From: Escherichia phage P-GXEC-L2P5
Direction: 5' to 3' (one strand)
Sequence record: PQ843332.1
Length of the DNA stretch: 64,000 bases
The translations under genes were made by a program, and so were the position numbers. How positions within the stretch are numbered: the stretch's first letter is position 1; each line of letters opens with the position of its first letter. The notes beneath the pieces are model-generated. The model was not told the DNA's origin and searched no databases. It was given only the letters and a program-made list of their open reading frames with translations. Positions 1 to 63,528 of this stretch are shown here, piece by piece.

Positions 1-66
1 TTTAAAGATATCAAGCTAATGGAGCGAATCGCGCTTGATGAAATGGCGCAACAAAACCCCGCATAA
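1..66 (+). CDS. tail assembly chaperone, C-terminal end of the frameshifted gpT-like extension (partial; 5' end outside window)
   Basis: Frame 1 reads FKDIKLMERIALDEMAQQNPA-stop; the same peptide ends the T-frame extension after the G-like chaperone at 49363-49432. Confidence 0.5.
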   Translation, partial: FKDIKLMERIALDEMAQQNPA

Positions 67-604
67 TGAAGCGGGACAAGCGGGACGTCCCGTTTTGTCC
101 CGCCCCTCAAAAACTGCATACTTATTTACTATTATTGCATAAACTAAAAGCGGGACAAGCGGGACGTCCCGATCTGGCACCCCTCTGAAAAGCGCATACC
201 TATTCAGTTTTACTGCATAAACCAAACGGGACAAAAAGCGGGACAAACAAGGGGCGGGACAAAGCGGGACAGCACCCCCGCCCCGCCAGTGCTGCCGCGG
301 GGTTTAGCCGATCGGGACAGGCGGGACAAAGCCCAGTCTTTCAGACTAGACGGGGGTCAATGGCCCCCCTCGCGCGGTTTTTAGCCGATCGGGACAGGCG
401 GGACAAAGCCCAGTCTTTCAGACTAGACGGGGGTCAATGGCCCCCCTCGTCTGAGACTGAATAAGGTTTGTTTTAAATTCGCTGATACAATGTTTCAGAC
501 TAGACGGGGGTCAATGGCCCCCCTCGTCTGAGACTGAATAAGGTTTGTTTTAAATTCGCTGATACAATGTCAACCGGCAACTGCATAAAAAAGGGGGCTG
601 CATA
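67..604. repeat. non-coding repeat module R1: GCGGGACA(A) arrays in direct and inverted orientation, GC-rich tract, repeated strong hairpin, TGCATAAA boxes
   Basis: At least 10 GCGGGACA-type 8-mers; near-palindrome GCGGGACAAGCGGGAC/GTCCCGTTTTGTCCCGC at 70-102; no plausible ORF; paralogous modules at 31353-31610 and 49433-49893. Confidence 0.7.
411..459 (+). terminator. strong stem-loop (cagtctttcagactagacggggg...cccccctcgtctgagactg), terminator-like; also at about 334-371 and 487-535 through tandem duplication
   Basis: Long GC-rich inverted repeat seen directly; no clean U-tract, so terminator function is inferred only. Confidence 0.35.
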
Positions 605-3401
605 ATGGCAGATCAAGCAGCAGGCATCACGCTAAAGGCGGATGTCGCACAAATCAGAACGGCGAATACTGTGCTTGATTCATTCGCACAGAAATCCGAG
701 AACACAGAAAACAAGGTTAAGAAATTAAACGACACACTCGGCAAATCCAAAAAGGTTACGAGTGACGCCGCGGGTGGAATGGAGAAGCTGGCGACTGAAT
801 CGCAGCGCGCCGCAGATGGCATGACGAAACAGGAGCGACTTGCCAACAGGTTAGGCATGTCGACCAAAAACCTGGGCTTTGCCTCGCGTAACGCCGCATT
901 CCAGTTACAGGATATCGCAGTTACGCTTGAGATGGGGATGCCAGTTCACCGCGTCATGCTTCAGCAGTTACCACAGCTTACCGGGGCGTTCGGTGGATTG
1001 GGTAACACGCTGCGTTATGTTGCGGGCTTCCTCGGTCCGGTAGGGATCGGCATTGCAGCACTAACGGCAACGTTAGGCGTAGGAGTGGCGGTTACGTCCC
1101 GTGCCGAAAACCAGGTCGCAGCGCTTAACAAGACGCTGGCGCTGTCGGGTAACATTTCCGGACTCACTGCAAACCAGATCCTGGTGCTATCCGAGAACGC
1201 CGAGCGCATGGGCGGGTCGTTCCGCAAGACGCGTGACACAATCCAGGCGCTGGCGGCGGCGGGTGTGAAAGCGGGTGGTGACTTCGGCGCACTGGCGACC
1301 GCAAGACGCGTGACACAATCCAGGCGCTGGCGGCGGCGGGTGTGAAAGCGGGTGGTGACTTCGGCGCACTGGGGAAGGTAGTGAATGACTTCGCGAAGGT
1401 GTCCAGCCAGCCGATCGAGGATGTGGTCGCGGCGGTGGCGAAGCTGTCAACCGACCCGGTAGGCGGCTTACGGGCATTGGCGGATAAGTATCACGTCGTA
1501 AACGAAGCGCAGATCCAGCAGGTGCAGTCACTAGTGACGGCTGGTCGCGAAACCGAAGCGGTGGCGCTGGCTAACAAAACAGCCGCGGCGTCGTTTACCA
1601 CTATGACCAACGATATTAAGTCCAACATGGGTACGCTTGAGCGGTCGATGAACGTCGTTACATCGGCAGCTAAATCTATGTGGGACGCCATCCTGGATGT
1701 GGGCCGCGCGCAGTCCTCGAATGAGTCAGAGATGAAAGCGCGTGAATCATTGCAGCGACTGACCACGGCTTACTATGCCGAGATGAAAGCGGTCAACGCT
1801 GCCGGTGGGGTGATGACCGAAGCGCAGAAAGCACGTATTAACATGCTTTATAGCGAAATGGTCGCCCAGGAGAAAGTAGTCGCGTCGCTCACCCTGCGCA
1901 ACCGTGCAGAGCGTGACAACGCCAACGCCGCGGAACAATCAGCAAAGGCGAACGAGGAGGCAAACCGCACTGCCCGCGACCGCGCCGCGTTTGAGAAGGA
2001 GTACGCAACCAACGCTAAGCGGCGCGCCGACGAGATCGCCCGCCTCAATTTGCTTAATAAGCGCGGCGTGATTGACGAGAAAGAGCTTGCCGAGGCGGTG
2101 AAGCAGGTAAACGAGCGTTACAAAGACCCCGCCCCGAAGAAGGCCGCCGCTGTTCGAGTCGATGCCGGGCTGAAAATGCTGGAAGTCGCGCGAAGCGAAC
2201 TGGCACAGCTTCGTGAGTCTGGAAAGCAGATCGAAGCCAACTCCTCGACGCAGACCCGAACGCAACGCGCTCAAGCGGCCCTAAACAAGCTGATCGCGGA
2301 TAATGAGCAGTTAATCGCAGCAAGCAAAGAAAGAGCACTAACGGCAGCAGAAAAGCAGCAGATGGTCGAATTCGGACGCGTGAAGGAAGTACGCGAGCAG
2401 ATCGTCGAAGAAGCCAAATTGCTGGACGCGAAAGAGAAGCAGGTCAAGGCGCACGCGCAGATCGACTCCTTCGTTAAGAACCAGAACGCCGAGCTAAAAG
2501 CCACCGCGGCGGGCTATGCGCTTTCCACTCGCGAAGCGGCTAACCTGCGCGAAGAATTGCAGCTAATTGACCGCCTTAAGCGGGTGGGCGCTAGTGATAC
2601 CGATATTGATCTGGCGGTGTCTAAACTGCGCGAAGTGCAGGAAGCACAGACCGGTGCTAACGCCTCACTATGGGATGGATTCAGCCGTGGGCTTAAGGAT
2701 AGCGTGGATGAAATGGGTAACGGCTATACGCAGATGACGTCACTCACAAAATTCACGTTCGGCGCTATGCAGGACACGATGAACGAGTTTTTCGAGACTG
2801 GCAAGCTGAACGCAAAGGATATGGTTAAGTCCATCCTGAGCGAATTAATCAAGCTGGCTACCTCGCAGGCGTTCAAGTCCATCGTTAGCGCTTTCGGTGG
2901 CGACGGCGGCAAAAACGGATTGTTCGGCGCTATCTTCTCGGGCCTCACCAAGAATGCGGACGGCGGAGCGTACGTGGCGACGGCGGCAAAAACGGATTGT
3001 TCGGCGCTATCTTCTCGGGCCTCACTAAGAATGCGGACGGCGGAGCTTACGCAGGGGGCAATCTCGCGGCCTATTCTGGGAAAGTGGTAAGCCAGCCTAC
3101 CTTTTTCAGTTATGGCGTCCAGGCGTTCGCTAAGGGCGCAGGATTGATGGGCGAGGCTGGTCCCGAGGCCATCATGCCGCTGAAGCGCGGGCCGGACGGG
3201 AAACTGGGCGTTGCCGCGTCTGGCGCAGGCGGTGGTATGGTCGTGACGACTAACGTTTACACGGGGACCGGTAAAACGGATACCAGTGTCAGCGGGCCGG
3301 ATCCCCGTACCGCGCAGGCGTTCGGCAAGCAAATCACCGAGGCGGTGAAGGCCGAGATCGTGAAGGCGACGAAACCGGGTGGTGTACTTTACAAACGATG
3401 A
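605..3401 (+). CDS. tail length tape measure protein (frame broken by tandem duplications near 1218-1372 and 2894-3051)
   Basis: ORFs 605-1345, 1342-3090 and 2997-3401 are contiguous; long coiled-coil Ala/Lys/Glu-rich middle; Gly-rich C-terminus; sits upstream of gpM/L/K/I/J-like genes. Confidence 0.75.
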
Positions 3402-3435
3402 TAAAATGGCCCTCACTACAACGTGGGGGCTTTTT

Positions 3436-4112
3436 ATGTCACAAGGTACAATCACACTAACGAAAGGAAGTAAGACCGTCACGGGCGCGGGAACGGCGTT
3501 CCTTAGCGAGATCGGGAAGGTACTCGTATTCGCCCGCATCGACGGCAACGACTACACCGGCAAAATTGCGGCATTCAACTCGAACACGGTCATTACTCTG
3601 AAAGATAACTGGGCCGGTCCGACGAAATCCGGTGCGGCATATGAGCTAATCGAAGCACACGACCCGCGATCAAACGAATGGCCCTATTACTGGCACCGAC
3701 GAAATCCGGTGCGGCATATGAGCTAATCGAAGCACACGACCCACGGTCAAACGAATGGCCCTATTACTGGCACATGCAATTGCAGGGCGGCGGCGACGTG
3801 CAGTTAGCTTTCCGGTCGGAGGAATTGCAATTCGGTAATGGCTACGGACAGAACATCGCGGACGGACCGAACGCAGAAACGAAACAGTTCCCCGTGCAAT
3901 TCGTCGGACTGACTACTGATAAGTGGTGCGACCCTAAACTGGTTTATAACTTTCTGCGCGGTCACTTCGTCAAGCCGTTTGTTGTCACCGCTCCAGATGG
4001 CGAAACAGGTTTATTCGTGGTCGAGCGTTCGAGCTTGTCGTACACTGACAACGGGCACTACACGGCAACTGTGTCCGCCACCCTTAAGACAGCTATTGGA
4101 TTCGTAAGATGA
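3436..4112 (+). CDS. minor tail protein, lambda gpM-like C-terminal domain (frame broken by duplication 3619-3772)
   Basis: ORFs 3379-3726 and 3678-4112; GGAGG-like RBS before ATG 3436; position between tape measure and gpL-like gene. Confidence 0.55.
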
Positions 4113-4897
4113 ATAAACTATATCGCGAGGCGACGCGCTTTGACCCATCGGGACGCGTTCGCCTGATTCACATTGACGCGCAGGACGTGGAGCCTGGCGA
4201 CGGCGCGATCGGCGCGGGCCATCACTATTTTCACTACTGCTTTATTCCGCACACTGCCGAGGATATTGCTGCCGCGGGCGGAGACGAGGACAAGCTAAAG
4301 CCCAAATCTATCTTCTTCGGCGGGCAGGAATTCGAATTCTGGCCCTTCGATTTGTCCGGCCTTAACTTCTCCACATCAACGGCAGCAGAACCGCAGCTAA
4401 CCATCGTTGATATTGGCGGCATAATCACCCGGCTGTCGCTGAATCACGACCAGCTACTGGGCGCGAAGGTTGAAATAATCGACACGTTTGCGAAGTTCCT
4501 GGATAACGGGTCGGATCCAGACCCGACGCAAAAACGTGTCCAGGAGTATTACATCGACTCACAGGTTGGGCGCAATCCAGGCAAGCAGATCACCTTCGCA
4601 TTATCCTCACCCGCGGATATGGAGGGGCAAGTAGTTCCCCGCCGCCAGATCATGAACATGTGCGAATGGGCGCTCAATGGGAAGTACGCCAGCGGGGACG
4701 GCTGCACGTGGAACCTTGCGAAGCCTGGCATCAAGTATTACGACGAGCGAGGTAATGAAGTCATCGCGATGAACATGGACCGATGCGGCGGCTGTTTGTC
4801 CGACTGTTATCTTCGATTTGGGCAAGGGCTTGCGGACCCTAAAGCGGCGGTGCTGGACTTCGGCGGCTTTCCGGGGTCCAGATTAATTAAGGGGTAG
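4109..4897 (+). CDS. minor tail protein, lambda gpL-like
   Basis: Intact 262 aa ORF; C-terminal Cys cluster CGGCLSDC; conserved position; ATGA overlap with upstream gene. Confidence 0.75.
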   Translation: MNKLYREATRFDPSGRVRLIHIDAQDVEPGDGAIGAGHHYFHYCFIPHTAEDIAAAGGDEDKLKPKSIFFGGQEFEFWPFDLSGLNFSTSTAAEPQLTIVDIGGIITRLSLNHDQLLGAKVEIIDTFAKFLDNGSDPDPTQKRVQEYYIDSQVGRNPGKQITFALSSPADMEGQVVPRRQIMNMCEWALNGKYASGDGCTWNLAKPGIKYYDERGNEVIAMNMDRCGGCLSDCYLRFGQGLADPKAAVLDFGGFPGSRLIKG

Positions 4898-4899
4898 TC

Positions 4900-5640
4900 A
4901 TGTTAACGAAGAAGGTTAAAAGCGATATCGCCGCACACGTCGCGGCATGTCTGCCGGAAGAAGCCTGCGGCCTGGTTGTCATGGTGGGCCGCAAACAAGT
5001 TTTTATCCCGTGCGTTAACGTATTCGAAGATCCTACCGGTGCGCGCTCGCGTAAGGACGCGTTTACAATCAGTGATACGGCCTGGATGGATGCTGAGGAT
5101 ATGGGCGATGTCGTTCGCGTAGTCCACTCACACCCAGGTCAGCGCGAGTTAACCCCGTCATTGGGTGACGTCAACGGCTGCAACGGCAGCGGCGTCGTCT
5201 GGACAATTACCAATGAGTATGGCGACTTTATCGAGATCGACCCGGAAGACCCGCCACTGGTGGGTCGCCGATTTGTTCTCGGAATTACGGATTGTTATGG
5301 CCTCGTTATGGACTGGCATAAAAAGCATGGCGTAAACCTGCCAGACTTCCGCGTACCGTACAACTGGTGGGAGACAGGCGAAAACCTGTATATGGACAAT
5401 TGGTATGGAGCGGGCTTCCGGGAGTGTGCGGAGAATACGCCAGGGGCGATGGTCATCATGCAGATTAGCGCGCCAGTGCCTAACCACGCCGGAATCTACC
5501 TTCCGGGCAACCAACTACTACACCATATCTACGGCAGCCTGTCGAGCGTGATCCCCTTCCGGGCAGGATTTTTCCGCGACAATGTGGTTAAATGGGTACG
5601 TCATAAAGACTTACCGTGGGATATCACAGAATGGCAATGA
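4900..5640 (+). CDS. tail assembly protein, lambda gpK-like (JAB/MPN + NlpC/P60 domains)
   Basis: Intact 246 aa ORF; HSHPGQRELTPSLGD (JAMM-like His motif) followed by Cys/His peptidase-like region; position after gpL-like gene. Confidence 0.8.
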   Translation: MLTKKVKSDIAAHVAACLPEEACGLVVMVGRKQVFIPCVNVFEDPTGARSRKDAFTISDTAWMDAEDMGDVVRVVHSHPGQRELTPSLGDVNGCNGSGVVWTITNEYGDFIEIDPEDPPLVGRRFVLGITDCYGLVMDWHKKHGVNLPDFRVPYNWWETGENLYMDNWYGAGFRECAENTPGAMVIMQISAPVPNHAGIYLPGNQLLHHIYGSLSSVIPFRAGFFRDNVVKWVRHKDLPWDITEWQ

Positions 5641-6248
5641 CCACATTTAAATTATACGGCGTCTTAGGGCGTCGTTTTGGTAAAGTGCACAAGCTGGATT
5701 GCTTCACCCCGGGCGAAGGTATCACAGGCCTATGCGTGAAGCTGCCTGGCTTACAGGACTTTCTAATGTCGGCCCACCTGGAAAATATTATGTTCAAGGT
5801 GCGCAAAGGCAATCACACAATGACCGGATACGACGAGTTAGGAGAGTTCCACGGCGACCGCGTAGTTACCATCGCACCGGTTATGACCGGCGCAAAACGC
5901 GGACTAGGCCAATTACTGGCGGGCGTAGCCATCGTGGTGGCGTCGTTCTACACCGGCGGGCTTGCTACTGCCGCTTTCGGAGCTTCCGCCGCGACCGCTG
6001 CCGCTATCGGTACGGCAACGTTTTCGTTCGGGATGTCGATGGCGCTGGGTGGCGTTATGCAATTGCTGTCACCGCAACCGAAAGGATTGCAGACACGGCA
6101 GGACGTGGATAACAAGGCGTCTTATGCGTTCGGCGGACCGGTAAACACGACCGCGCAAGGTACGGCACTTGGTGTATTATGGGGCGAGCGTGAGATCGGC
6201 GGCGCTATTATTTCCGCCGGAATCGTAACCGAGGACTTGAACGAATGA
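5631..6248 (+). CDS. tail assembly protein, lambda gpI-like
   Basis: ORF 5616-6248; N-terminal TFKLYGVLGRRFGK ubiquitin-like region, Gly/Ala-rich hydrophobic C-terminal half; overlaps gpK-like stop. Confidence 0.65.
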   Translation: MAMTTFKLYGVLGRRFGKVHKLDCFTPGEGITGLCVKLPGLQDFLMSAHLENIMFKVRKGNHTMTGYDELGEFHGDRVVTIAPVMTGAKRGLGQLLAGVAIVVASFYTGGLATAAFGASAATAAAIGTATFSFGMSMALGGVMQLLSPQPKGLQTRQDVDNKASYAFGGPVNTTAQGTALGVLWGEREIGGAIISAGIVTEDLNE

Positions 6249-6321
6249 CGATTATCTACGACGTCACAGGCCATAAAGGCGGCGGCGGCAAAGCCGGAAT
6301 CGTAACCGAGGACTTGAACGA

Positions 6322-9300
6322 ATGACGATTATCTACGACGTCACAGGCCATAAAGGCGGCGGCGGCAAACAGCACACCCCACAGGAGACGCCGGACAGCC
6401 TGCATTCGCTGGCTAAAATCCGCATCTTGCTCGCACTGGGCGAAGGTGAGTTCGAAGGCATTACCGACCCTAACGAATTACGGCAGCGCGTATACCTGGA
6501 CGGAACACCGATCCAGAACGCCGACCTGTCAGAAAACTTCCCCGGCGCGCGCGTGGAGTTCCGCCCAGGCACACAGCACCAGGACGTGATCCACGGATTT
6601 TCAGCGGTGGAAAGTGAGCAATCCGTAGGCGTAAAACTGGAAAACGGCACGCCGTGGGTGCGCCAGATTAACGACACCAGTCTTGACGCCGTGCGCATTC
6701 GAATCGGCATTCCGGCCCTGTACACCAACGAAGACAACGGCGACCTGGTGGGCGGGCGCATCGACTACAAAATCGTTGTGTATACGGACAACGCTGATCC
6801 GCGTGAGTTTACCTTCGCTGCCGTTGGTAAAACAATGTCGCTGTACGAGCGCGACCACCGCATCGAGTTACCGCCGAACGTGAATACCGGCTGGCGCGTG
6901 GAAGTTCACCGCACAACGGCAGATTCCACATCGGCGAAAGTGGTGAACGATATTCAGGTACAGTCCATCACTGAGATTATTGACGCCCGCCTGCGTTACC
7001 CGCTAACCGCGCTGTTGTTTGTGGAGTTCGACGCCAAAGCGTTCCAGAACATCCCGCGCGTGTCCATTAAGTGCAAAGGTCGCAAAGTTCTAATACCGAA
7101 CAACTACGACCCGATCAATCATACCTATGCCGGGTACTGGGACGGCACGTTTAAACGCGCATGGACGGATAACCCTGCGTGGCACTGGTACGATATTTGT
7201 ATTACTGAGCGCTTCGGCCTCGGTCGGTTAAACGCGCATGGACGGATAACCCTGCGTGGCACTGGTATGATATTTGTATTACTGAGCGCTTCGGCCTCGG
7301 TCGCCGGATCAAGCCGCAAATGCTAAACAGATATGCGCTCTACCAGATTGCGAAGCGCTGCGATCAACTGGTCAGCGACGGCAACGGCGGGCAGGAAATC
7401 CGATTTAAGAATGATATGTACATCCAGTCGCAGACCGACGCCTGGACCGTGCTTAAGGATTTAGCCGCCATCTTTGCCGGTATGACCTGGTGGGGCAACC
7501 AGATGTTGAATATTGTAAGCGATCAGCCGGTCGCAGCGGTATCGCACACTATCACCAACGCCTCGGTCATTGATGGTCGATTCGACTACGCGTCAGGGAG
7601 CCAGAAAACTCGGTATTCCACGTTCGCTGTAGCATACGGCAACCCGAAGAACCACTATGAAGATGCCATTGCTACGGGACAGCGTGTCGAACTGGTACGC
7701 CGCCATAAGATTAACCGTCTGGATATAACGGCGATCGGCTGTACGCGTGAGTCAGAAGCGCAACGCCGCGGGCACTGGGCGCTAATCTCCAACCAGCTTG
7801 ACCAGCAAGTTAGCTTTAAGGTTGGCATGGAGGGACTTTTCTTTATTCCGGGTAGTGTAGTCGCGATCGCCGATACAAACATTTCTGGCGGCTTCGAGAC
7901 ACGCGGCGGTCGCCTGTTGTCAGATCCTGGCACGCGGACTGTGCTGAACACAGACAGCGAAATCACGTTCCGCCCTGGGGATAAATTCCTGGTACGCACC
8001 GATAGCGGTAATGTGGAGACTCGCGAGATTGCCAGCGTCAACGGCAACAAGGTTACGCTAAAAACCGCACTGGACGCCGACCCGATTCCTGATCAGCCGT
8101 TTTGCGTCGATGGCAACGATATCCAGTTGCAGAAGTTCCGCATCACCGACCTGGAATATGACGACTCTACCAGCACTTTTTCAGTGCGCGGGATCGAATA
8201 CAACGATAGCAAATATGATGCCGTTGATAATGGCGCTCGCCTTGACCCAGGCATCTTTACGCAAGTTCCTGACGGCGTAATGAAGGGGCCGGAGTCCGTG
8301 ACCATTACCCCGTCGCAGATTTCATCGCAAGGCCAGCTAATCACCAACGTGGATATTGTGTTCCCGCCGGTGAAGGATGCCGTTGTTTATGAGATCCAGT
8401 GGCGACGTACCAGCTTGCAGAATATGGCGGTACAGTGGGGAAACGACTGGGTAAACATCCCCCGCACGGCATCGAACGGCGCGCACATCCCTAACGTGTT
8501 CTCCGGTAACTACCAAGCGCGCGTCCGCGCGATCGGTATGGGCGAGATTTCATCCCCGTGGGTGTCGTCCGCTATCACGCCGGTGGAAGGTCGTCTCGGC
8601 GGTCTTAACGCGCCTATCATCACCAACGCGATTTCGGGCCTTCACCAAATTTTGTGGAAGTGGAACCACAACAACGCCGCGACGGATATTTCGTACACCG
8701 AGCTTGAAGTTCGCAAGACGGGTGAAACGGAATGGAAATTCCTAACCAACGTCCCATACCCGGGGTCGGAGTATGCGCAAACGTCGCTGGAGTTCGGCAT
8801 CTATCAGCAGTTGCGCGCCCGTGTAGCGGATAAAATCGGCAACCTGTCGGACTGGTCGGCCCCGTTTGAAGGGCAGGTGAGCAGCAGTTGCGCGCCCGTG
8901 TCGCGGATAAAATCGGCAACCTGTCGGACTGGTCGGCCCCGTTTGAAGGGCAGGTGAGTGACAATGTTGACGAGTACATGAAGGGGCTGGACGACGAGTT
9001 CTTGACTTCTGAGGACGGTAAACGCTTCCAGGAAGCGATCGACACCATGCCGCAAGGCATTTATGAGGCTATGCTCACCGACGCACAGCAATTGTTTAAC
9101 GCCCGCGCCGAGTACAAGGGGATTTATGCAGAAATCTCGGTCGCGTATAACGTGGCGGCAGATGCCCACCAGGCGGTAGCGCAACTGGAAACGTTGATCG
9201 GTACTCGCCTTGACGATGCGGAAGCGGCAATCCACACGTTGCAGACCGCGCAAAGCACGCACGAGCAAGCGTTCGCCCAGTACCAACAAACTGTTGCCGC

Positions 9301-9826
9301 TAAGTTCGGTCAGCAGTCCGCCGCGATCGAGCAGAAGATGACGTCCTCGTTTAACCACTCCGGTGGTAGCGCCACATACAGCCTTAAGGCGGGTGTGACG
9401 TATAACGGTACTTACTATGATGCGGGTATGCAGCTTTCCGTTGTAACGTCGGGCAGCGCGGTTAAATCTCGTATCGCGTTCAAAGCCGACCAGTTCTACA
9501 TCATGCACCCATCTAATGGGTCGCTTTCGTCCGCGTTCATCGTCGACGGAGGACAGGTGTACATCGACACGGCACGAATCAAGAACGCGTCCATTAACTT
9601 CGCACAGATCACGGACACGCTGCGGTCTAATAACTTCGTTGCGGGGTCGTCAGGGTGGAACCTGCCTAAATCGGGTAACGCGGAATTGAACAACGTAACG
9701 GTCCGCGGCAACCTGTACGCCACATCGGGTAACTTCGGGTTTTCTGGTGGGACCGTGACGATCGACAAGACAGGCGTAAACGTGCCGTTACCTGGCGGGG
9801 GGAGGGTGAAAGTCGGGACGTGGTAA
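6322..9826 (+). CDS. host specificity / tail tip protein, lambda gpJ-like (frame broken by duplications near 7151-7304 and 8806-8959; start codon duplicated at 6245 and 6322)
   Basis: ORFs 6322-7326, 7320-8957 and 8888-9826 are contiguous, about 1,100 aa after removing duplicates; conserved gpJ-like N-terminus MTIIYDVTGHKGGGGKQHTP; position after gpI-like gene. Confidence 0.8.
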
Positions 9827-9831
9827 ATGCG

Positions 9832-9853
9832 AAGGGGCCATCCGGCCCCTTTT
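9832..9853 (+). terminator. rho-independent terminator (aaggggccatccggcccctttt), usable on both strands
   Basis: GC stem, short loop, T-run; sits between convergent genes. Confidence 0.6.
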
Positions 9854-10818
9854 CAATACATATTCGGGATGACGAGTAGCGGGGTGGGTACGGCAATATT
9901 TTTACCTGGCATCTGGAATTGCTGCCGTGAGTAGTTGCCGATGACGCGGTTTTTAGCGACGCGCACATTATTACCCGCCATGCGTATTCCGTTCATGCGG
10001 ACGTGGTTATAGCCCCCGTTGTTCTGAATCAGCGCGCCGGTGTATGAAAGCTGGATCAGGCTGTTTCCTATATTCTGGTCGCCCGTGCCGATGTTAATCG
10101 TGCGGTCATATACGAACGGCTTGTTCACCGTCGAGAACGTGACCTGATTCTGGTTATTTGTCATAGTGATCCCGGCCCCTGGCGTGGGTGGTGTATTGTT
10201 GAATATGACAAGGTCCATGTCCACCGAAGCCGCCACATCGTCGATGCCACCATAGGCCGCGTTGCGGACGATAATACTGCCACCATCGAAGCCTACTGAT
10301 ACGTTGCCGTCATCCCAGCGGGCGAACGGGACACCGCTAACGGGCAAGGCCATACTACCGTTGACGCGTACTCGCTGTGCGTATCGGCAGGTCATTAGCT
10401 TAGACACGTTGGATATGGCGGTGAAGTCCGTCGAGTTCTCCACCAGTAAGCCCGCGTTGCGTGAACCAACCGGCAGCACTTCCATTATGACGCCAGCCCA
10501 TTGTGGTAAGCCAGAGTACGCGCCATACGCATCCTCCCCGCGCAGGGTGATACCACTATTCCCGTTGCGGGTAACAGACGTAACGTAAAACGGGTCGGGA
10601 ATTACCAGGGTCTGGTCGAATACCTCAATCACTTCTACCGGGCGAGTGAGCGCGACGACGACCTGCGACCCCTCCGTAAGCGGGGTGTTAATGGTTAGCG
10701 TCTTGTTGGACTGTGCCCGCTGGTTAAAGCTGGTGCAGTATGCTGGCGCGCGAAGCCCTGCGGTGATCTCCATGCGCGGTCTTCCGTCGTTGTAGTCGAT
10801 AAGTATTCCAGCACCCAT
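9853..10818 (-). CDS. hypothetical protein, Asn/Gly-rich with beta-helix-like repeats; co-transcribed with upstream lipoprotein
   Basis: Intact 324 aa ORF; start overlaps lipoprotein stop; repeated N-x-x-(V/I)-x-N segments; absent from second genome copy. Confidence 0.45.
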   Translation of the reverse strand: MGAGILIDYNDGRPRMEITAGLRAPAYCTSFNQRAQSNKTLTINTPLTEGSQVVVALTRPVEVIEVFDQTLVIPDPFYVTSVTRNGNSGITLRGEDAYGAYSGLPQWAGVIMEVLPVGSRNAGLLVENSTDFTAISNVSKLMTCRYAQRVRVNGSMALPVSGVPFARWDDGNVSVGFDGGSIIVRNAAYGGIDDVAASVDMDLVIFNNTPPTPGAGITMTNNQNQVTFSTVNKPFVYDRTINIGTGDQNIGNSLIQLSYTGALIQNNGGYNHVRMNGIRMAGNNVRVAKNRVIGNYSRQQFQMPGKNIAVPTPLLVIPNMY

Positions 10819-10820
10819 TA

Positions 10821-11042
10821 TTACCACTCCCGTGATTTAACTGATACTGTGCCTGAGAAATTGCCGTCGCTATCTGAAGACAGCCCAGTGAATCGCATGT
10901 CCACATCTCCTGCCGGGACTTTTTGCCCATCAACGTAGCGCAACATGCAGCTACCGTACGCAACCGTAATGCACTCGCCGTTGTTGCGTTCTACGGCGCA
11001 ACCGGATAAAAGAACCGCACAAATCATAATTAAAGTTTTCAT
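10821..11042 (-). CDS. small lipoprotein, candidate Llp/Cor-like superinfection exclusion protein
   Basis: Signal peptide MKTLIMICAVLLSGC with lipobox LSGC; AGGGGA RBS; lies between gpJ-like gene and tail fibre; mature part differs completely from paralogue at 61449-61667. Confidence 0.5.
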   Translation of the reverse strand: MKTLIMICAVLLSGCAVERNNGECITVAYGSCMLRYVDGQKVPAGDVDMRFTGLSSDSDGNFSGTVSVKSREW

Positions 11043-11122
11043 GGTATCATCCCCTATATTTGGTTGAGTTTTAGTATTACACCGCTCAACCAGGATTGCA
11101 ACCAATTTAAGAGGATTTAGCT

Positions 11123-12901
11123 ATGGCAGCGGGTACGCTATCCGTAACGAACAATAGCAAGGCTGTAGTAGGGGTCGGCACAACGTTTACCGCGTTTAAA
11201 GCGGGCGACTTCTTAACGCTGGTGGTAGGACAAGTCCCATACACCGTGGCAATCGCGTCCATTGAAAGCGCAACCGCGCTCACGCTGGTACTGCCGTTCG
11301 ACGGCCCAACGGCAACCGGCCTTGCGTGGGATGGCGTTAAGCGCGATACCATGTCGCTGGCAACGATGGGCGTTACCGTACAGGCCCAAAAAGCATTGCG
11401 CTTGATGATTGCAGATGAAAACAACTGGCGTGCAATCTTCGGCGATGCTGAAGAAATCACAGTCACGCTCCCGAACGGGCAAGTTATGCAGGGTATGTCG
11501 TGGGGCTACCTGTCGTCTTTGCTGAAGGAAGTAGACCCCGTTGAGATGCGCAACCTGCAACAACAAGCCGCCGCATCGGAAGCAGCCGCGCAAGGATTCC
11601 GTAACGAGGCGGAAGGCTTCAAGAACGACGCCAACACCATCAAGACGCAGACCAGCCAACTTAAGGCAGATACGCAGGCTATCAAGGACCAAACGAATCA
11701 GATCAAGACTGACACTGGCGTTATTCGTGATGAAGCCAATACCGCGAAGGAGGACGCGCAATCTGCCCGCACTGCCGCGCAAGGATTTCGCAATGAGGCT
11801 GAACAATTCGCTAATAGTGTTAACCCGGAAAACCTACTTGCGAAGGCCAACAACTTAAGTGATGTTGCGGATGTGGCTGTGGCGCGCGAAAACATTGGCG
11901 TAGACCGCCTAACGCAAAACATAACCAGCGGCGAAACACAAATCAGGACTGCGGCGAAGAATAAATGGATCTTCGTTAAGGAAAATGGCGACTGGGGCGG
12001 GTGGGATAATGCCAACAATAAAGCCATGCCGCTGCCGATTGCATTCGGTGGTACGGGGCGCGGCGATAACGTCGCCGAGTTCCGCCAATTCAAATCAAAC
12101 GGCGACACCCAAGATGGGTTAATCATTACGCAGAACGGGTCTGGATTTGGTGGTGTATGCTGGGGGGATTCCGCCAATAAAGTACGCTGGCGCATGGGGA
12201 TTAACGACGCCGCGGGTAATTTTAAGTTGCACTCATATGACGCGTCGGGCGCGTACCGCGATACCTTTATGGAGATCTCTGGATCGGGGATAAGCGGCAT
12301 GGTGTGTCATCGAGATATCATGGTCCGCCCAACAGAGACAGTTCCAGTGTTGTCTTTCGTCCTAAACAACGGAAAAGCTACCGTCCCGGCTGGTAACGTC
12401 CGCACGATGTGGGATACGGTTAACATCAATAGTAATATAATCTATAAATATTTTGAGAAGGGAGACGGCACTGGCTTCACAGTCAACTGGCCCTCATCTG
12501 GTGGTGTTATTGCCCTCCAGGGTACATCAGGAAGGGACTTTAAGAAAGATATTACCGACGCGGACGTTACAGAAGCGGTTGCACGCATTGAACAAATGCG
12601 CATGGTGCGCTACGTGTATAAGGACGATGTGCAGGAGCGCGTCCGCTTCGGCATCATTGCCGAGGAAGCAGAAGAGATTGCGCCTCAATACATCAAACAC
12701 CGTGAGGAGACGTACGATGTGGAGGTGGACCCCGAGACTAACGCCATCGTCGGGGGTAAGACGCGCGACCGTCCGTCGGTAGACGTTAACCCTATCGTGA
12801 TGGACTTGATGGGGTGCGCACAATATGCGATCGCTGAGTGTAAACGCCTGGCGGCGGAAGTGGAGGATTTGAAAGCCGAGATCGCGGCGTTGAAGAAATA
12901 A
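11123..12901 (+). CDS. tail fibre protein with C-terminal intramolecular chaperone (peptidase S74-like) domain
   Basis: Intact 592 aa ORF; coiled repeat region; C-terminal ...RFGIIAEEAEEIAPQYIK...DLKAEIAALKK resembles the auto-cleaving chaperone domain of endosialidase and L-shaped tail fibres. Confidence 0.7.
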   Translation: MAAGTLSVTNNSKAVVGVGTTFTAFKAGDFLTLVVGQVPYTVAIASIESATALTLVLPFDGPTATGLAWDGVKRDTMSLATMGVTVQAQKALRLMIADENNWRAIFGDAEEITVTLPNGQVMQGMSWGYLSSLLKEVDPVEMRNLQQQAAASEAAAQGFRNEAEGFKNDANTIKTQTSQLKADTQAIKDQTNQIKTDTGVIRDEANTAKEDAQSARTAAQGFRNEAEQFANSVNPENLLAKANNLSDVADVAVARENIGVDRLTQNITSGETQIRTAAKNKWIFVKENGDWGGWDNANNKAMPLPIAFGGTGRGDNVAEFRQFKSNGDTQDGLIITQNGSGFGGVCWGDSANKVRWRMGINDAAGNFKLHSYDASGAYRDTFMEISGSGISGMVCHRDIMVRPTETVPVLSFVLNNGKATVPAGNVRTMWDTVNINSNIIYKYFEKGDGTGFTVNWPSSGGVIALQGTSGRDFKKDITDADVTEAVARIEQMRMVRYVYKDDVQERVRFGIIAEEAEEIAPQYIKHREETYDVEVDPETNAIVGGKTRDRPSVDVNPIVMDLMGCAQYAIAECKRLAAEVEDLKAEIAALKK

Positions 12902-12905
12902 ATAG

Positions 12906-12930
12906 AAGGGGCCATGCGGCCCCTTTTTTA
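12906..12930 (+). terminator. rho-independent terminator (aaggggccatgcggcccctttttta), bidirectional
   Basis: Perfect GC stem plus T-run between convergent genes. Confidence 0.65.
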
Positions 12931-13580
12931 GTTTGAGTTTTCCCAGTCCATTTTGCGCCGCACCAGATGGCTTTCGTAATATTCCTTGCCCTCAACTTCC
13001 ACTAAGGGCCAATCGTTAACAATCACGTACGGTTCCGCAATATCCTCAATCACGCCGTGCGCGCTTTGCGGCCCTAACGACACGCCCACCAGGATAACAC
13101 CGGCAACACGACGGGCAAGATACTCACGAGCGCAGCGCGCCTCTACCAGTCCGCGACGGATGCCGCTGGTGGCCTTAACTTCGTAGGTCCATACGGCATC
13201 GATCACATGCTCGCGGAAGTCGGGACCGGACTTCACCTTGCGCTTGCCGACCATGATGATATCGCCGCGACGGCATCGATCACATGCTCGCGGAAGTCGG
13301 GACCGGACTTCACCTTGCGCTTGCCGACCATGATGATATCGCCGCGGTCAATGGTATTGGCGCTAAACAGGCCGGTACGCATGAGCAAGCCTTGAGGAAT
13401 ACAACTGCGCCCTCCTGCCTGCCCTTCAAGATACATGCCTGCAAACATCTCGCCCAGCACACCGACCAGTCGGCTTTGCTTGCACGCGTCAGACTTTAAG
13501 CGCCACTGGTCAAACTCGATGCTTGCTATCATTGCCGCCAGGTGGAATTGTTTACCGGATATTTCATATTCGCCGTACAT
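12928..13580 (-). CDS. hypothetical protein, possible PD-(D/E)xK-type nuclease fold (frame broken by duplication near 13195-13345)
   Basis: ORFs 13233-13580 and 12928-13254 are contiguous; GDII...YEVK resembles D...(E)xK; homologue at 63627-64000. Confidence 0.3.
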
Positions 13581-48963: not shown

Positions 48964-49432
48964 TTGAGGCGGCGCGGCGCTTTTATGGCCCGCCCACTTC
49001 GTACTATCTCGAACTGATGGGATTGCGTGAAAAAAACTAATTGAGGCGGCGCGACGCTTTTATGGCCCGCCGCCACCCTCCGAAGATTTAGCCGCGAGTT
49101 TATGGGGCGCGGCCCCTGAAGATGTTTGCCCACCAGTTGCGCTATGGCCCGACAACGCGAAGGTAGTCGCCGTCTTCACGGATTGCTCCACGCAATGGCG
49201 CACCGGATTCGGCGGCGCATACGGCATCGACTACGGCGTACTGGAATGGCTTTTTAAGATGCACGGCATCGAAAACGCGCCGGATTCGGTGGCGCATACG
49301 GCATCGACTACGGCGTACTGGAATGGCTATTTAAGATGCACGGCATCGAAAACGCGCAACGTGCGTTTAAAGATATCAAGCTAATGGAACGCGTTGCGCT
49401 GGATGAAATGGCGCGGCAGAACCCCGCATAAC
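48954..49432 (+). CDS. gpT-like extension reached by -1 frameshift from the G-like gene (region contains duplications near 48937-49080 and 49180-49330)
   Basis: The -1 frame after AAAAAAC reads KKLIEAARRFYGPPPPSEDLAASLWGAAPEDV... and ends ...KLMERVALDEMARQNPA-stop at 49432. Confidence 0.5.
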
Positions 49433-49893
49433 GGAGCGGGACAGGCGGGACGTCCCGTTTTGTCCCGCCACCACTAAACCGCATATATACTCACTTTCAT
49501 TGCATAAATTAAAAGCGGGACAGGGGTGCTGTCCCGCTTTGTCCCGCCCCCAAAATGTGAATATCTATTCGATTTTCGTGCATAAAACAAACGGGACAAA
49601 AAGCGGGACAGAATTGGGCGGGACAAAGCGGGACAGCACCCCTGTCCCCGCCAGTGCTGCCGCGGGTTTTAGCCGATCGGGACAGGCGGGACAAAGCCCA
49701 GTCTTTCAGACTAGACGGGGGGTCTGTCACCCCCCTCGTCTGAGACTGAATAAGGTTTGTTTTAAATTCGCTGATACAATGACCGACGGCAACTGCATAA
49801 AAAGGGCCCCCCTCGTCTGAGACTGAATAAGGTTTGTTTTAAATTCGCTGATACAATGACCGACGGCAACTGCATAAAAAGGGGGACTGCATA
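49433..49893. repeat. non-coding repeat module R3, second-copy counterpart of R1
   Basis: Same GCGGGACA arrays, inverted pair GCGGGACAGGGGTGCTGTCCCGC, hairpin and TGCATAAA boxes; ORFs called here are spurious. Confidence 0.7.
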
Positions 49894-52800: not shown

Positions 52801-53152
52801 TCGCTAAGGGCGCTGGGTTGATGGGTGAGGCTGGACCCGAGGCCATCATGCCGCTGAAGCGCGGGCCGGACGGGAAACTGGGCGTTGCCGCGTCTGGCGC
52901 AGGCGGTGGTATGGTCGTGACGACTAACGTTTACACGGGGACCGGTAAAACGGATACCAGTGTGCCGCGTCTGGCGCAGGCGGTGGTATGGTCGTGACGA
53001 CTAACGTTTACACGGGGACCGGTAAGACGGATACCAGTGTCAGCGGGCCGGATCCCCGTACCGCGCAGGCGTTCGGCAAGCAAATCACCGAGGCGGTGAA
53101 GGCCGAGATCGTGAAGGCGACGAAACCGGGTGGTGTACTTTACAAACGATGA
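49894..53152 (+). CDS. tail length tape measure protein, second copy (fragmented by tandem duplications)
   Basis: ORFs 49894-50190 through 52671-52997 are collinear with 605-3401 at about 95% aa identity. Confidence 0.7.
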
Positions 53153-53186
53153 TAAAATGGCCCTCACTACAACGTGGGGGCTTTTT

Positions 53187-54879: not shown

Positions 54880-54881
54880 CC

Positions 54882-60339: not shown

Positions 60340-60375
60340 TATAGGGGCTTCGGCCCCTTTTTAACGAGGTTATTT

Positions 60376-60678
60376 ATGGCATTCGGTATCGCAACGTGGG
60401 ACGCGCAAGGACGCCCAAACAACTACGGCATTAAACCGGTAAGCGTGATCGGAAGGATTCATCTTGCGGAAGGACAAAAATCAGGCGCATGGTCATTCCC
60501 TGTACCGGCGGGGATGAAGGTCGGATACGTGGTCGCACTGGATAAAGGCGCGGTCGGGCCAGGACGCAGAATATCTGCCAGCGGGAACACTATCACGGTT
60601 TCCGCGGCAAGTGCAGTAGGTGGCGGGGTTTACTCCGCATCTGAATGTGACGTTATTGTTTTTGTGGAGCGAGCATAA
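60376..60678 (+). CDS. hypothetical protein specific to second copy
   Basis: Intact 100 aa ORF replacing the minus-strand cassette found after gpJ in copy 1. Confidence 0.4.
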   Translation: MAFGIATWDAQGRPNNYGIKPVSVIGRIHLAEGQKSGAWSFPVPAGMKVGYVVALDKGAVGPGRRISASGNTITVSAASAVGGGVYSASECDVIVFVERA

Positions 60679-61429: not shown

Positions 61430-61430
61430 A

Positions 61431-61456
61431 GAAAGCCCCGAAAGGGGCTTATTTGC
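61431..61456 (+). terminator. bidirectional rho-independent terminator (aaagccccgaaaggggctt)
   Basis: Perfect stem between convergent genes. Confidence 0.55.
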
Positions 61457-61667
61457 AGGTTGTGCTTTTGAAATGGTCTACAGACACGTACTGGAAGCTA
61501 AACGGATAACCCGCCCTTAGCATTTTATGCCCGGAGAAGTCCGCAACACCATACACAGGTACCGCATAATCCATGCCGCTATTCTGGTATGTGGCGTCGC
61601 AGACTTTAGCGGGCATGTTGGCACAACCGGACAAAAGAACCGCACAAATCATAATTAAAGTTTTCAT
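61449..61667 (-). CDS. small lipoprotein, second-copy variant with unrelated mature domain
   Basis: Same signal peptide MKTLIMICAVLLSGC as 10821-11042; mature part ANMPAKVCDATYQNSG... is unrelated. Confidence 0.5.
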   Translation of the reverse strand: MKTLIMICAVLLSGCANMPAKVCDATYQNSGMDYAVPVYGVADFSGHKMLRAGYPFSFQYVSVDHFKSTTCK

Positions 61668-61747
61668 GGTATCATCTCCTATATTTGGTCGAGTTTCAGT
61701 ATTACACCGCTCAACCAGGATTGCAACCAATTTATGAGGATTTAGCT

Positions 61748-63526
61748 ATGGCAGCGGGCACACTATCCGTAACGAATAACAGCAAGGCGGTTGTAGGGGT
61801 CGGCACAACGTTTACCTCGTTTAACGCTGGCGACTTCTTAACGCTGGTGGTAGGACAAGTCCCCTACACCGTAGCAATCGCGTCCATTGAAAGCGAAACC
61901 GCGCTTACGCTGGTGTTGCCGTTCGACGGCCCAACGGCAACCGGCCTCGCGTGGGATGGCGTTAAGCGCGATACCATGTCACTGGCGACGATGGGTGTAA
62001 CCGTACAGGCACAGAAAGCATTGCGCTTGATGATTGCAGATGAAAACAACTGGCGTGCAATCTTCGGCGACGCTGAAGAAATCACCGTGACGCTGCCTAA
62101 CGGGCAGGTAATGCAGGGTATGTCATGGGGCTACCTGTCGCAGTTGATGAAACAGATCGACCCCGTTGAGATGCTAAACCTGCAACAACAAGCCGCCGCA
62201 TCGGAAGCAGCCGCGCAAGGATACCGCGACCAGGCCGAAGGCATTAAAACCGAGACGGCAGGCATCCGCGACGACACCAGGTTGATTAATGCTGATACGC
62301 TGGCGATCCGCAACGACACCGATGCCATCAGGACGAATACCAACCAGATTAAATCAGATACGCAGGCCATTAAGGACCAGACGAACCAGATCAAGACGGA
62401 CACCGGCGTTATTCGCGACGAAGCCAATACCGCGAAGACGGACGCGCAATCCGCCCGCGATGCTGCGCTGGGATACCGGAACGAGGCCGAACAGTTCAAG
62501 AATGAGATCGACCCGTCGAAACTTCTGGCAAAGGCCAACAACCTTAGCGACGTTGCCGACCCCGCGGCAGCGCGCGACCACTTAGGCATCGGGCCTGACG
62601 ACACCCTTAACCTTGGTGGCCTGGTAACGTCCGGCAGTATCTCCGCGGGCCGCAACACATGGGATGGGTCTAACTGGGGGAGCCAGGGACTTCTCGCCTC
62701 ATTAGTGGTCCTATACCCGGACGGAAGCTCAGCCCCAGGCTTATACGTGCGAAAATCCAACGGCGACAGCGGATATGCGGCGGGATGGTTGTATAACGAG
62801 AACAGTATCAGTTGGGCTACTAACGCGCGTATTGCGGGCTTTCAGTTCCGGTCCCCTAAAGGCGCGATGGGGTATAACCAGCTATGGTCAGAGGCTGTGG
62901 TGCGTGCGGACGACTTCATGGCACAGAATGGCGCGGAAAACTATAAGTCGTTAATCGCGGGGGCCGCTACAACGCAAGGTCACGGATACTCGGGCGGTGT
63001 CTCGTTCGGGATAATGACAACTGGCATAAACAACTGGCCCCGGGCGCAGATCTCGATCGGCACAGCAGACCGTGACGCCGCTGGGAATATGGCTTCGCAG
63101 ATGCACTTCCGCTTTAATGAATATGGGCAGATTTCTTACACAGGGCCACTGGGGACGGGGTCGTTCCAGCAAGTACCTGCGTCGGATCGCAACCTGAAGC
63201 ATGACATTGCCGATGACGCAAGCAGCACCGCCTACGACAATATCAAGGCTTTGCGGTTCCGCACGTTCGTATTCAACAACGATGAACAGGAACGGCAGCG
63301 TCGCGGTATTATTGCGCAGGAAGCGGAAGAAATCGACCCGCTGTATGTGAAGCACCGCGTGTATAACAATCACGAATTAAATGGGCCTCTGGTGCACCAG
63401 CTTGAACTGGATACGACACCGCTGTTACTCGACACTATGCGAGCGTTGCAGGATACGATTAAGCAGGTGGAGGATTTGAAGGCGGAGATCGCAGCGATGA
63501 AGCAGGCGGAAGAGTTGAAGAAATAA
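61748..63526 (+). CDS. tail fibre protein, second copy, with different distal domain and same type of C-terminal chaperone
   Basis: N-terminal about 300 aa collinear with 11123-12901; distal domain non-homologous; C-terminal ...RRGIIAQEAEEIDPLYVK...DLKAEIAAMKQAEELKK. Confidence 0.7.
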   Translation: MAAGTLSVTNNSKAVVGVGTTFTSFNAGDFLTLVVGQVPYTVAIASIESETALTLVLPFDGPTATGLAWDGVKRDTMSLATMGVTVQAQKALRLMIADENNWRAIFGDAEEITVTLPNGQVMQGMSWGYLSQLMKQIDPVEMLNLQQQAAASEAAAQGYRDQAEGIKTETAGIRDDTRLINADTLAIRNDTDAIRTNTNQIKSDTQAIKDQTNQIKTDTGVIRDEANTAKTDAQSARDAALGYRNEAEQFKNEIDPSKLLAKANNLSDVADPAAARDHLGIGPDDTLNLGGLVTSGSISAGRNTWDGSNWGSQGLLASLVVLYPDGSSAPGLYVRKSNGDSGYAAGWLYNENSISWATNARIAGFQFRSPKGAMGYNQLWSEAVVRADDFMAQNGAENYKSLIAGAATTQGHGYSGGVSFGIMTTGINNWPRAQISIGTADRDAAGNMASQMHFRFNEYGQISYTGPLGTGSFQQVPASDRNLKHDIADDASSTAYDNIKALRFRTFVFNNDEQERQRRGIIAQEAEEIDPLYVKHRVYNNHELNGPLVHQLELDTTPLLLDTMRALQDTIKQVEDLKAEIAAMKQAEELKK

Positions 63527-63528
63527 GA

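Follow-up and report, generated by a model that had tools for sequence, protein, structure and literature searches.

The question raised by this locus is how two open reading frames (ORFs) that share their 5′ part and their last codons can be unrelated in between while lying in one and the same piece of DNA. Both ORFs, at 11123..12901 and 61748..63526 on the plus strand, are 1779 nt long and encode 592 aa, and both are found in the window, i.e. the whole stretch of 64,000 nt that was analysed here (Escherichia phage P-GXEC-L2P5, PQ843332.1). The original prediction treated them as copy 1 and copy 2 of a tail fibre, which needs correcting: they are alleles of one gene from two Dhillonvirus phages rather than paralogues. 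There is little doubt that this gene is the single lateral (side) tail-fibre gene of these siphophages, and that the two alleles differ by an exchanged cassette comprising the tip of the fibre and its chaperone.

The reason both ORFs are present in one window is that the window is an artefactual assembly walk round a ~45-kb genome in which the tail region is met two times, first in an SO-1-like and then in a Gluttony-like variant. Positions 1-13378 are colinear with 49366-64000 (79-96% nt identity), and the window covers a Dhillonvirus genome 1.28 times. As many as 81 untrimmed tandem overlaps of 77 bp were counted in it; when these are taken out, the ORFs for the tape measure (894 aa) and J (1133/1156 aa) are intact again and the spacing of the two fibre copies becomes exactly 45,000 bp. 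The segments of the window tile SO-1 and Gluttony, with the same 77-bp overlaps in reference coordinates. The fibre ORFs are themselves free of overlap junctions, copy 1 lying within the segment 8958-13269 and copy 2 within 61062-63623, and 10827-13268 is 100% identical to SO-1. One or two mismatches are common in the overlaps (range 0-2), which is not what a plain de Bruijn-graph walk predicts, and the making of the window is thus only partly explained. A 42-mer spanning one of the artefact junctions had no match among the viral contigs of IMG/VR or the metagenome contigs of JGI. Since the window is artefactual, any result that rests on two copies in one genome has to be discounted.

The identity of the gene is clear from its relatives and its surroundings. 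Allele 1, of the SO-1/Oekolampad type, is 100% identical at the nucleotide level to gp25 of Sodalis phage SO-1 and 97.8% identical to the gene for the Oekolampad 'lateral tail fiber protein', while allele 2, of the Gluttony/Bas84 type and with an annotated ATG at 61748, is 100% identical to its counterparts in the phages Gluttony (gp60), Lust and Pride and 92.5% identical to that in Bas84. Full-length matches to the phrog_1980 tail fiber profile (E=1.5e-137 for allele 1 and E=1.9e-142 for allele 2) and a near-identical N-terminal anchor place both among the Dhillonvirus lateral fibres, such as SO-1 gp25, Oekolampad/Bas18 gp27, Gluttony gp60 and those of Bas83-85, with which they share an architecture in which anchor and coiled coil are followed by a tip and an intramolecular chaperone. 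They also share the locus, between a lipoprotein gene and a gp26-like gene. SO-1, Gluttony and nine other genomes have one gene order in common, with the fibre gene downstream of J and of a receptor cassette, divergent from the lipoprotein gene and convergent with the gp26-like gene. Only one fibre gene was found at this position in each of the 11 sequenced relatives examined.

That the N-terminal part is common to the two alleles is real, but its extent had been put at ~300 aa and is nearer 260 (~258 aa for copy 1, ~279 aa for copy 2), with an indel of 21 aa, or three heptads, in the shaft. Over the first 506 nt the identity is 90%, and between nt 502-767 of copy 1 and nt 565-830 of copy 2 it is 77%. 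Three elements can be distinguished in this shared part. The tail-attachment or anchor domain (aa 1-135; 11123..11527, and 61748-62152 in allele 2) shows 96.3% aa identity between the alleles and is near-invariant across 11 aligned Dhillonvirus fibres. A profile of it built from relatives matched, in a PDB search, the N-termini of Klebsiella-phage depolymerases (7VZ3/7VYV/7LZJ) and the side fibre of the F2-pyocin. The shaft that follows (aa 136-233; 11528..11821, and 62153-62509 in allele 2, where it is 21 aa longer) is a heptad-repeat coiled coil with 63% aa identity between the alleles and a perfect 7-residue register over ~14 heptads, and it resembles the shaft of T7 gp17 (7BOZ, E=2e-4). 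Its length differs between phages by whole heptads (7, 14 or 21 aa among 11 Dhillonvirus fibres), and it is absent altogether in jat, bob and PaulFeyerabend. The heptads are seen in the protein alone, no tandem repeats having been found at the DNA level in the coiled-coil region. The third element is a junction motif, NPENLLAKANNLSDVADVAVARENIGV (aa 234-260; 11822..11902, and 62510-62590 in allele 2), with 63-68% nt identity despite 68% aa identity. The motif, which can be written NLSDVAD..AR..G, is also found in DT57C LtfA and in the short tail fibre gp92 (PDB 9ZD7).

Beyond the junction motif the two alleles part company. The receptor-binding tip of allele 1 (aa 261-468, 11903..12526, plus strand) is without homology to allele 2, whose own tip (aa 282-478, 62591..63181, plus strand) belongs to a distal part that matches Bas83-85. 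BLASTP detected no homology between the ~200-aa middles (E=0.7). A profile-profile comparison of the untrimmed alignments was dominated by anchor and chaperone and uninformative on the middle; rerun with hhalign on trimmed middle columns, it gave a probability of 0.2%, i.e. no homology. With 18.8% aa identity in a global alignment, the non-homology of the region between the termini, as first proposed, is borne out. The breakpoints that were said to be visible are a more nuanced matter. On the 3′ side the break is sharp, at 12859/12860, and 89% nt identity returns abruptly at 12860/63467. On the 5′ side the descent is stepped, nt identity falling from 91% to 85% and then 66% before background is reached within a few bases at 11889/11890; the last matching bases there are GCGCGCGA (11882-11889). 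Alignment, which had been proposed as the means of telling a sharp breakpoint from gradual divergence, shows a sharp break on the 3′ side and a stepwise one, instead of a single clean break, on the 5′ side. Such a stepped boundary calls for more than one recombination event, or else for selection acting on the junction motif.

What lies beyond the 3′ break is short. The conserved arm (12860..12927, plus strand; from 63467 in allele 2) consists of the last 12 codons (VEDLKAEIAALKK) and a bidirectional terminator hairpin (12904-12927). The last 36 nt (12860-12895 and 63467-63502) are 89% identical, 10 of 11 Dhillonvirus fibres retain the C-terminal peptide VEDLKAEIAA, and the hairpin, which resembles a terminator (GGGGCC-ATGC-GGCCCC with a T run), was detected on both strands. 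A promoter scan of the intergenic region between the fibre and lipoprotein genes returned one weak minus-strand match, no better than in shuffled sequence.

The position of the 3′ break has a bearing on the chaperone, which had been counted, as a C-terminal tail shared by the two copies, among the conserved parts. A Peptidase_S74 domain (PF13884) is indeed present in both alleles, at aa 470-523 in allele 1 (43.6 bits, profile positions 2-56) and aa 479-534 in allele 2 (44.9 bits, positions 1-57), well above the Pfam gathering cut-off of 22 bits. The two chaperones (aa 469-592, 12527..12898, and aa 479-592, 63182..63523, both on the plus strand) are, however, only 39% identical in aa and have no nt similarity save for a bump of 67% at 12615-12700. 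Except for the last ~12 codons and the terminator, which alone are conserved, this region is part of what was swapped: the chaperone travels with the tip and not with the conserved frame. The exchanged unit is therefore the tip plus its own chaperone, aa ~259-579 of allele 1 (~11897-12859 in the window). A Ser-Lys dyad, with the Lys five residues downstream of the cleavage Ser, is known from endosialidase and T5 pb1. The same Ser-x4-Lys motif occurs as S469-GRDF-K474 in allele 1 and S479-DRNL-K484 in allele 2, and the Ser aligns to position 1 of the PF13884 profile, in a column conserved in 11 Dhillonvirus fibres. The alleles are also like these chaperones in their C-terminal place and in their terminal helix, and self-cleavage, with Ser469 and Lys474 or Ser479 and Lys484 as the predicted residues, may be expected from the motif. 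T5 pb1 itself was absent from the matches in four PDB sequence/profile searches. The allele 1 chaperone strongly matches the C-terminus of DT57C LtfA (8HQZ chain d, E=2e-45).

Relatives of the two cassettes are found on other fibres. The distal part of allele 1 (tip plus chaperone, ~330 aa) is 84% identical in aa to the fibre of the Tunavirus ADB-2, and this high identity starts at GVDR (aa 259-261) and ends at ~aa 579. T1-like (Drexlerviridae, Tunavirus) fibres have the same layout as the Dhillonvirus fibre, in which a coiled-coil shaft leads to a tip and an S74 chaperone; ADB-2 B508_00320 carries the allele 1 cassette, and Shfl1-type fibres a relative of that of allele 2. They nevertheless differ in having unrelated anchors (the N-terminus of the ADB-2 fibre is unrelated to that of the Dhillonvirus fibre), other last ~12 residues and another neighbourhood, the ADB-2 fibre gene sitting between primase and recombination genes. 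A further relative of allele 1 is LtfB of the T5-like phages DT57C and DT571/2, whose tip and chaperone are homologous to it (aa 333-591 of allele 1 and aa 534-785 of DT57C LtfB, 78% identity, E=3e-137) and which has the NLSD..A junction motif in common with the Dhillonvirus fibre; aa 261-332 of allele 1 have no match in LtfB, and allele 2 matches it in the chaperone only (36%). LtfB is likewise a lateral fibre that recognizes O-antigen and can be dispensed with on rough hosts, but it has another N-terminus and attaches via LtfA in a branched, L-shaped fibre, whereas the Dhillonvirus fibre attaches directly by its own anchor. The distal 310 aa of allele 2 are 89.9%, 82.9% and 81.3% identical to Bas84, Bas85 and Bas83, respectively, and its distal part is ~62% identical in aa to the T1-like Shfl1, JMPW2 and SH2. 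Dhillonvirus, T1-like (Drexlerviridae) and T5-like (Demerecviridae) phages draw on a common set of such cassettes.

A second cassette has been swapped immediately upstream. It comprises the C-terminus of J, a DUF6453 gene (9853-10827, minus strand, E=2e-121) and the mature part of a lipoprotein (9639..10994), and has no nt similarity to its counterpart at copy 2 (60179-61619), which consists of two small plus-strand ORFs plus Cor. The lipoprotein gene adjoining allele 1 (10821..11042, minus strand) belongs to the PF24052 family (E=2e-21) and its product is 98.6% identical in aa to Oekolampad gp26; that adjoining allele 2 (61449..61667, minus strand) encodes a Cor superinfection-exclusion lipoprotein (phrog_1119, E=5.5e-27; annotated Cor in Gluttony). 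The signal peptide is common to both, the first 16 aa being identical, and the point at which homology between the copies sets in, 10995, lies one codon past the lipobox Cys. The receptor cassette of copy 1 type is found in Oekolampad, Bas84 and Bas85 and that of copy 2 type in JLBYU60, jat and GeorgBuechner; assignments of these types to LptD and FhuA have been published (PMC8594841, PMC11990801, PMC12309495). All four combinations of fibre type and receptor-cassette type occur, e.g. SECphi18 has an allele 1 fibre with a Cor module and Bas84/85 have an allele 2 fibre with a DUF6453 module. Fibre and receptor cassettes thus assort independently.

That the receptor-binding part has been exchanged as a module, on an anchor that stays conserved, holds true here, because the flanks are 90% identical at the nucleotide level, the middle is without homology and each tip is nearer to fibres of other families than to the other copy. 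An alternative in which the middle diverged in place by rapid diversifying selection, without cassette exchange, would fit the stepwise fall of identity on the 5′ side, and there are indeed PHROG tail-fibre profiles (e.g. phrog_6921 and phrog_5481) to which both tips have a match. It is nevertheless very improbable in view of the abruptness with which background is reached at 11889/11890 and left at 12860, zero residual protein similarity set against a genome backbone that is ~90% identical, tips that are 62-90% identical in aa to fibres with unrelated anchors in other families, and the four combinations of fibre and receptor-cassette types. Targeted mutagenesis, by a diversity-generating retroelement or similar, was rejected on indirect grounds: the tips differ by a lack of homology, not by point mutations, and each has close relatives in other phages.

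Hardly more credible, and if anything a little less so, is a single genome with two paralogous lateral fibre genes and two specificities, i.e. a dual-fibre phage in the manner of DT57C with its LtfA and LtfB, even though both ORFs do lie in one 64-kb sequence and their common anchor would fit the same tail site. The copies are embedded in 13-14 kb of colinear DNA (tape measure, J, receptor cassette, fibre and downstream gene), their artefact-free spacing equals one Dhillonvirus genome length, all 11 relatives have a single fibre gene, and the two copies are identical to the genes of two separate isolates, SO-1 and Gluttony each having just one allele. An assembly that holds 81 duplicated overlaps and switches between variants might also be suspected of having created the mosaic itself, by stitching the fibre ORFs together from different strains. 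This can practically be dismissed, as no overlap junction falls within either ORF and both agree in every base with genes of isolates that were sequenced independently. The reading as two natural alleles with an exchanged cassette is the one retained in what follows.

What the exchange means for the host depends on what the tips bind. In Dhillonvirus, O-antigen is what the lateral fibre binds, and the fibre can be dispensed with on rough strains; it is the upstream cassette, from the J C-terminus to the lipoprotein, that sets the terminal receptor (PMC8594841, PMC11990801). The swap had been put forward as one of host range, and this has to be qualified accordingly: a receptor-binding part has been exchanged, but it is not the part that sets the terminal receptor. 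LtfB has been linked to recognition of the O81 O-antigen (PMC4728585), and the lateral fibres of Bas83-85 target the O16 O-antigen (PMC11990801). By similarity to these fibres, the specificity of allele 1 is probably O81-like and that of allele 2 probably O16-like, assignments that rest on 78-90% aa similarity to characterized fibres, in which small differences are able to alter specificity. Bas85 Gp29, a relative of allele 2, has been modelled with a coiled coil, a T5-like tip and an intramolecular chaperone (PMC11990801), and a fold like that of T5 pb1 may accordingly be proposed, from the literature, for the tips of allele 2 relatives only. AlphaFold2 monomer models of the distal halves were poor, with a mean pLDDT of 46 and 36 (alignments of 16 and 11 relatives). 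Low pLDDT is expected for monomers of an intertwined trimer.

A probable scenario can be outlined for how these parts work together. The fibre would be a homotrimer, fixed to the tail tip by the genus-specific anchor (aa 1-135), with a coiled-coil shaft whose length changes in steps of whole heptads, the junction motif and a distal domain that would bind O-antigen polysaccharide. The chaperone, by homology, would nucleate folding of the trimer and then cut itself off at Ser469 or Ser479 using the Lys at +5. Homologous recombination probably moves the tip-plus-chaperone cassette, with the junction and shaft serving as the 5′ arm and a 3′ arm made up of the final ~12 codons together with terminator and downstream gene. 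A change of cassette would then let the phage cross a different O-antigen barrier, while its terminal porin receptor is set by the independent, likewise swapped, cassette directly upstream.

In its broad lines this pattern is ordinary. It has already been described for Dhillonvirus in the BASEL papers (PMC8594841, PMC11990801), where the far 5′ end alone of the fibre gene is conserved in the genus, and both alleles were already in GenBank. Dhillonvirus genomes show two dips in similarity, one at the locus of the receptor-binding protein and one within the lateral-fibre gene, directly past its far 5′ end (PMC8594841, S2A Fig legend, section 10). There is no substantial difference from the published fibres, to which the present analysis adds the boundaries at 11889/11890 and 12859/12860 and the fact that the chaperone moves with the tip. 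A bolder and so far tentative idea, which we consider possible but somewhat less than an even bet, is that the arms are fixed and reusable, NLSDVAD..AR..G on the 5′ side of the tip-plus-chaperone cassette and, on its 3′ side, the codons for VEDLKAEIAA with the terminator, and that a second pair bounds the receptor cassette (a conserved stretch of J that stops near 9638, and the signal peptide of the lipoprotein as far as the lipobox). The adsorption apparatus would then amount to two plug-in slots whose contents are exchanged among three phage families, and the window, if this were true, could be read as a record of two variants co-occurring in one sample. In practical terms, the limits of the cassette (aa ~259-579, chaperone included) are sensible cut points for fibre swaps between these phages. 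More generally, exchange of tail-fibre tips is a main route by which phages change the surface sugars that they can pass, and it is one that is used deliberately in phage engineering.

The two lateral tail-fibre ORFs lie at 11123-12901 and 61748-63526 on the plus strand, where they had been placed, each spanning 1779 nt and encoding 592 aa. They align end to end in BLASTP with 50% identity that is very unevenly spread. The N-terminal anchor (aa 1-135) is 96.3% identical, the heptad-repeat shaft 63% (a 21-aa gap included), a junction motif of 25-27 aa (..LLAKANNLSDVAD..AR..G.) 68%, the following ~200 aa 18.8% when forced into a global alignment, and the C-terminal ~120 aa 39%. No homology was detectable in the middle by BLASTP (E=0.7) or by hhalign on trimmed profiles of relatives (probability 0.2%). 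The modular swap put forward by the original prediction thus stands in outline, with a shared N-terminal part, a non-homologous middle and relatives of the tips in other phages, although the shared stretch is ~260-280 aa long rather than ~300. For the two distal halves, AlphaFold2 monomer modelling gave a pLDDT of 46 and 36, too poor to use.

The two ORFs had been described as copy 1 and copy 2, but are alleles from two Dhillonvirus phages. Positions 49366-64000 are colinear with 1-13378 at 79-96% nucleotide identity in a self-comparison, which also revealed immediate tandem duplications with a period of exactly 77 bp in all cases (68 or 81, depending on whether the threshold was strict or looser), spaced every 0.3-4 kb across the whole window (e.g. 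1222-1375, 8805-8958, 13193-13346, 60984-61140 and 63547-63700). Since successive window segments correspond to tiles of reference genomes overlapping by 77 bp in reference coordinates, these duplications are overlaps left untrimmed where assembly segments were joined, and each duplication breaks a reading frame, 77 not being divisible by 3. Mismatches (1-2) are common within the overlaps, which is not expected of a plain k=77 graph walk, and a junction 42-mer had no match in viral and metagenome contig collections. Once the second copy of each duplication is removed, a tape-measure ORF (894 aa) and, in both passes, J-like ORFs (1133 and 1156 aa) are recovered, and the fibre-to-fibre distance becomes exactly 45,000 bp; Dhillonvirus genomes measure 43-46 kb (PMC8594841). 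Together, the colinear passes, restored ORFs and spacing indicate that the window is a ~1.28-turn walk round one phage genome, in which the second pass takes different variants from the first.

The first pass resembles Sodalis phage SO-1, its segments being 97-100% identical where compared, and the second resembles Gluttony (96-99.8%). The fibre ORF at 11123-12901 (allele 1) is base-for-base gp25 of SO-1, that at 61748-63526 (allele 2) is base-for-base the fibre gene of E. coli phages Gluttony, Lust and Pride, and neither contains a 77-bp junction. Both alleles were already in GenBank, and paralogy within one genome was rejected, given the ~1.28 passes and the identity of each ORF to an isolate gene. 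Findings that treat 1-13378 and 49366-64000 as repeats within one genome are affected. The first-pass phage is not SO-1 itself: 10827-13268 (lipoprotein, fibre and downstream gene) is 100% identical to it, but on the same assembly segment the neighbouring DUF6453 gene and J C-terminus (9303-10826) are just 87-94% identical.

The breakpoints, originally expected to be sharp, were located by a 60-nt sliding comparison combined with a codon-level view. The 3' boundary is indeed sharp: from 12860 and 63467 (GTGGAGGATTTGAA, encoding V-E-D-L-K-A-E-I-A-A) the alleles are 89% identical, and this stretch continues across a bidirectional terminator hairpin (12904-12927) into the downstream gene. On the 5' side, however, identity declines in steps, from 91% at 10995-11628, the level of the genome backbone, through a 63-nt indel equal to three heptads, to 82-88% at 11646-11765, 63-68% at 11766-11889 and background beyond GCGCGCGA (last base 11889), with a later bump of 67% at 12615-12700 over the Peptidase_S74 core GIIAEEAEEI.P.Y.KH. 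In the 63-68% zone synonymous sites differ and the protein motif is preserved, suggesting that the junction motifs came with their respective cassettes and that more than one exchange shaped the shaft. The shaft comprises ~14 heptads in perfect seven-residue register, and across 11 aligned Dhillonvirus fibres its length changes solely by whole heptads or by total shaft loss. At its terminus (63497-63523), allele 2 carries an extra QAEELKK past ..AEIAAMK, resembling a short duplication of the bases that encode the terminal LKK and also present in Bas84, Bas85 and jat. In profile searches, the anchor (11123-11527) matches the N-terminal parts of depolymerases from Klebsiella phages (PDB 7VZ3, 7VYV and 7LZJ; E~1e-22), as well as a side fibre of F2 pyocin (25VE) and a 'distal tail protein gp20' (23GD), which suggests a widely shared tail-attachment adaptor.

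Pfam Peptidase_S74, the intramolecular chaperone found in endosialidases and phage fibres, scores above threshold at both C-termini. The common chaperone is thus real as a family, but not as a conserved segment (39% identity), and it is swapped with the tip: at least four tip classes occur among 11 Dhillonvirus members, each with its own chaperone subtype, so the chaperone belongs to the exchanged part. A serine at profile position 1 and a lysine at +5 (S469/K474 in allele 1, S479/K484 in allele 2) would fit the self-cleaving mechanism of this family, known from endosialidase and T5 pb1. T5 pb1 itself was not among the hits when the PDB was searched by sequence and by profile. Over its distal 331 aa, allele 1 is 84% identical to the fibre of T1-like phage ADB-2, with high pairwise identity from G-V-D-R (aa 259-261) to near aa 579; the two fibres have unrelated anchors and differ in the last 12 residues. 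The same limits were seen between the two alleles. LtfB of T5-like DT57C is 78% identical to aa 333-591 of allele 1, and allele 2 shares, over its distal 310 aa, 81-90% identity with Bas83-85 and about 62% with many T1-like phages. Judged from these alignments, the cassette is mobile, chaperone included.

A second cassette lies upstream, with no nucleotide similarity between 9639-10994 and 60179-61619 in the self-comparison. The former encodes a different J C-terminus, a DUF6453 protein (minus strand) and a PF24052 lipoprotein, and matches Oekolampad, Bas84 and Bas85, which target LptD or are predicted to, while the latter encodes a J C-terminus, two small plus-strand ORFs and the Cor lipoprotein, and matches JLBYU60, whose receptor is FhuA, jat and GeorgBuechner (receptors: PMC8594841; PMC11990801; PMC12309495). 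The signal peptides of the two unrelated lipoproteins, 16 aa long (MKTLIMICAVLLSGCA; 10995-11042 and 61620-61667, minus strand), are identical in 11/11 genomes checked, and the recombination boundary falls one codon past the lipobox Cys. In SECphi18 the Cor module accompanies the allele 1 fibre, and in Bas84/85 the DUF6453 module occurs alongside the allele 2 fibre, so fibre and receptor cassettes assort independently.

Two similarity dips in Dhillonvirus genomes, one at the receptor-binding-protein locus and one within the lateral-fibre gene beyond its extreme 5' end, are described in a figure legend of the BASEL paper (S2A; PMC8594841), and this is exactly the pattern in the window. The original prediction had correctly recognized ordinary, already known phage mosaicism, erring in three details (chaperone conservation, breakpoint sharpness, and copies instead of alleles). 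The Dhillonvirus lateral fibre has been proposed to bind O-antigen as a first, dispensable receptor (PMC8594841, section 10; PMC11990801), the terminal porin receptor being set by a separate locus after gpJ (PMC8594841; PMC11990801). The lateral fibres of Bas83-85, which are close to allele 2, target O16 and are blocked when GtrABS glucosylates the O-antigen, and Bas85 Gp29 was modelled as a coiled coil with a T5-like tip and an intramolecular chaperone (PMC11990801). LtfB of DT57C/DT571-2, close to the allele 1 tip, is required for growth on the O81 strain HS3-104 (PMC4728585; PMC10713586). From these similarities of 78-90%, we infer that the sugar recognized by allele 1 may be O81-like and that recognized by allele 2 O16-like.
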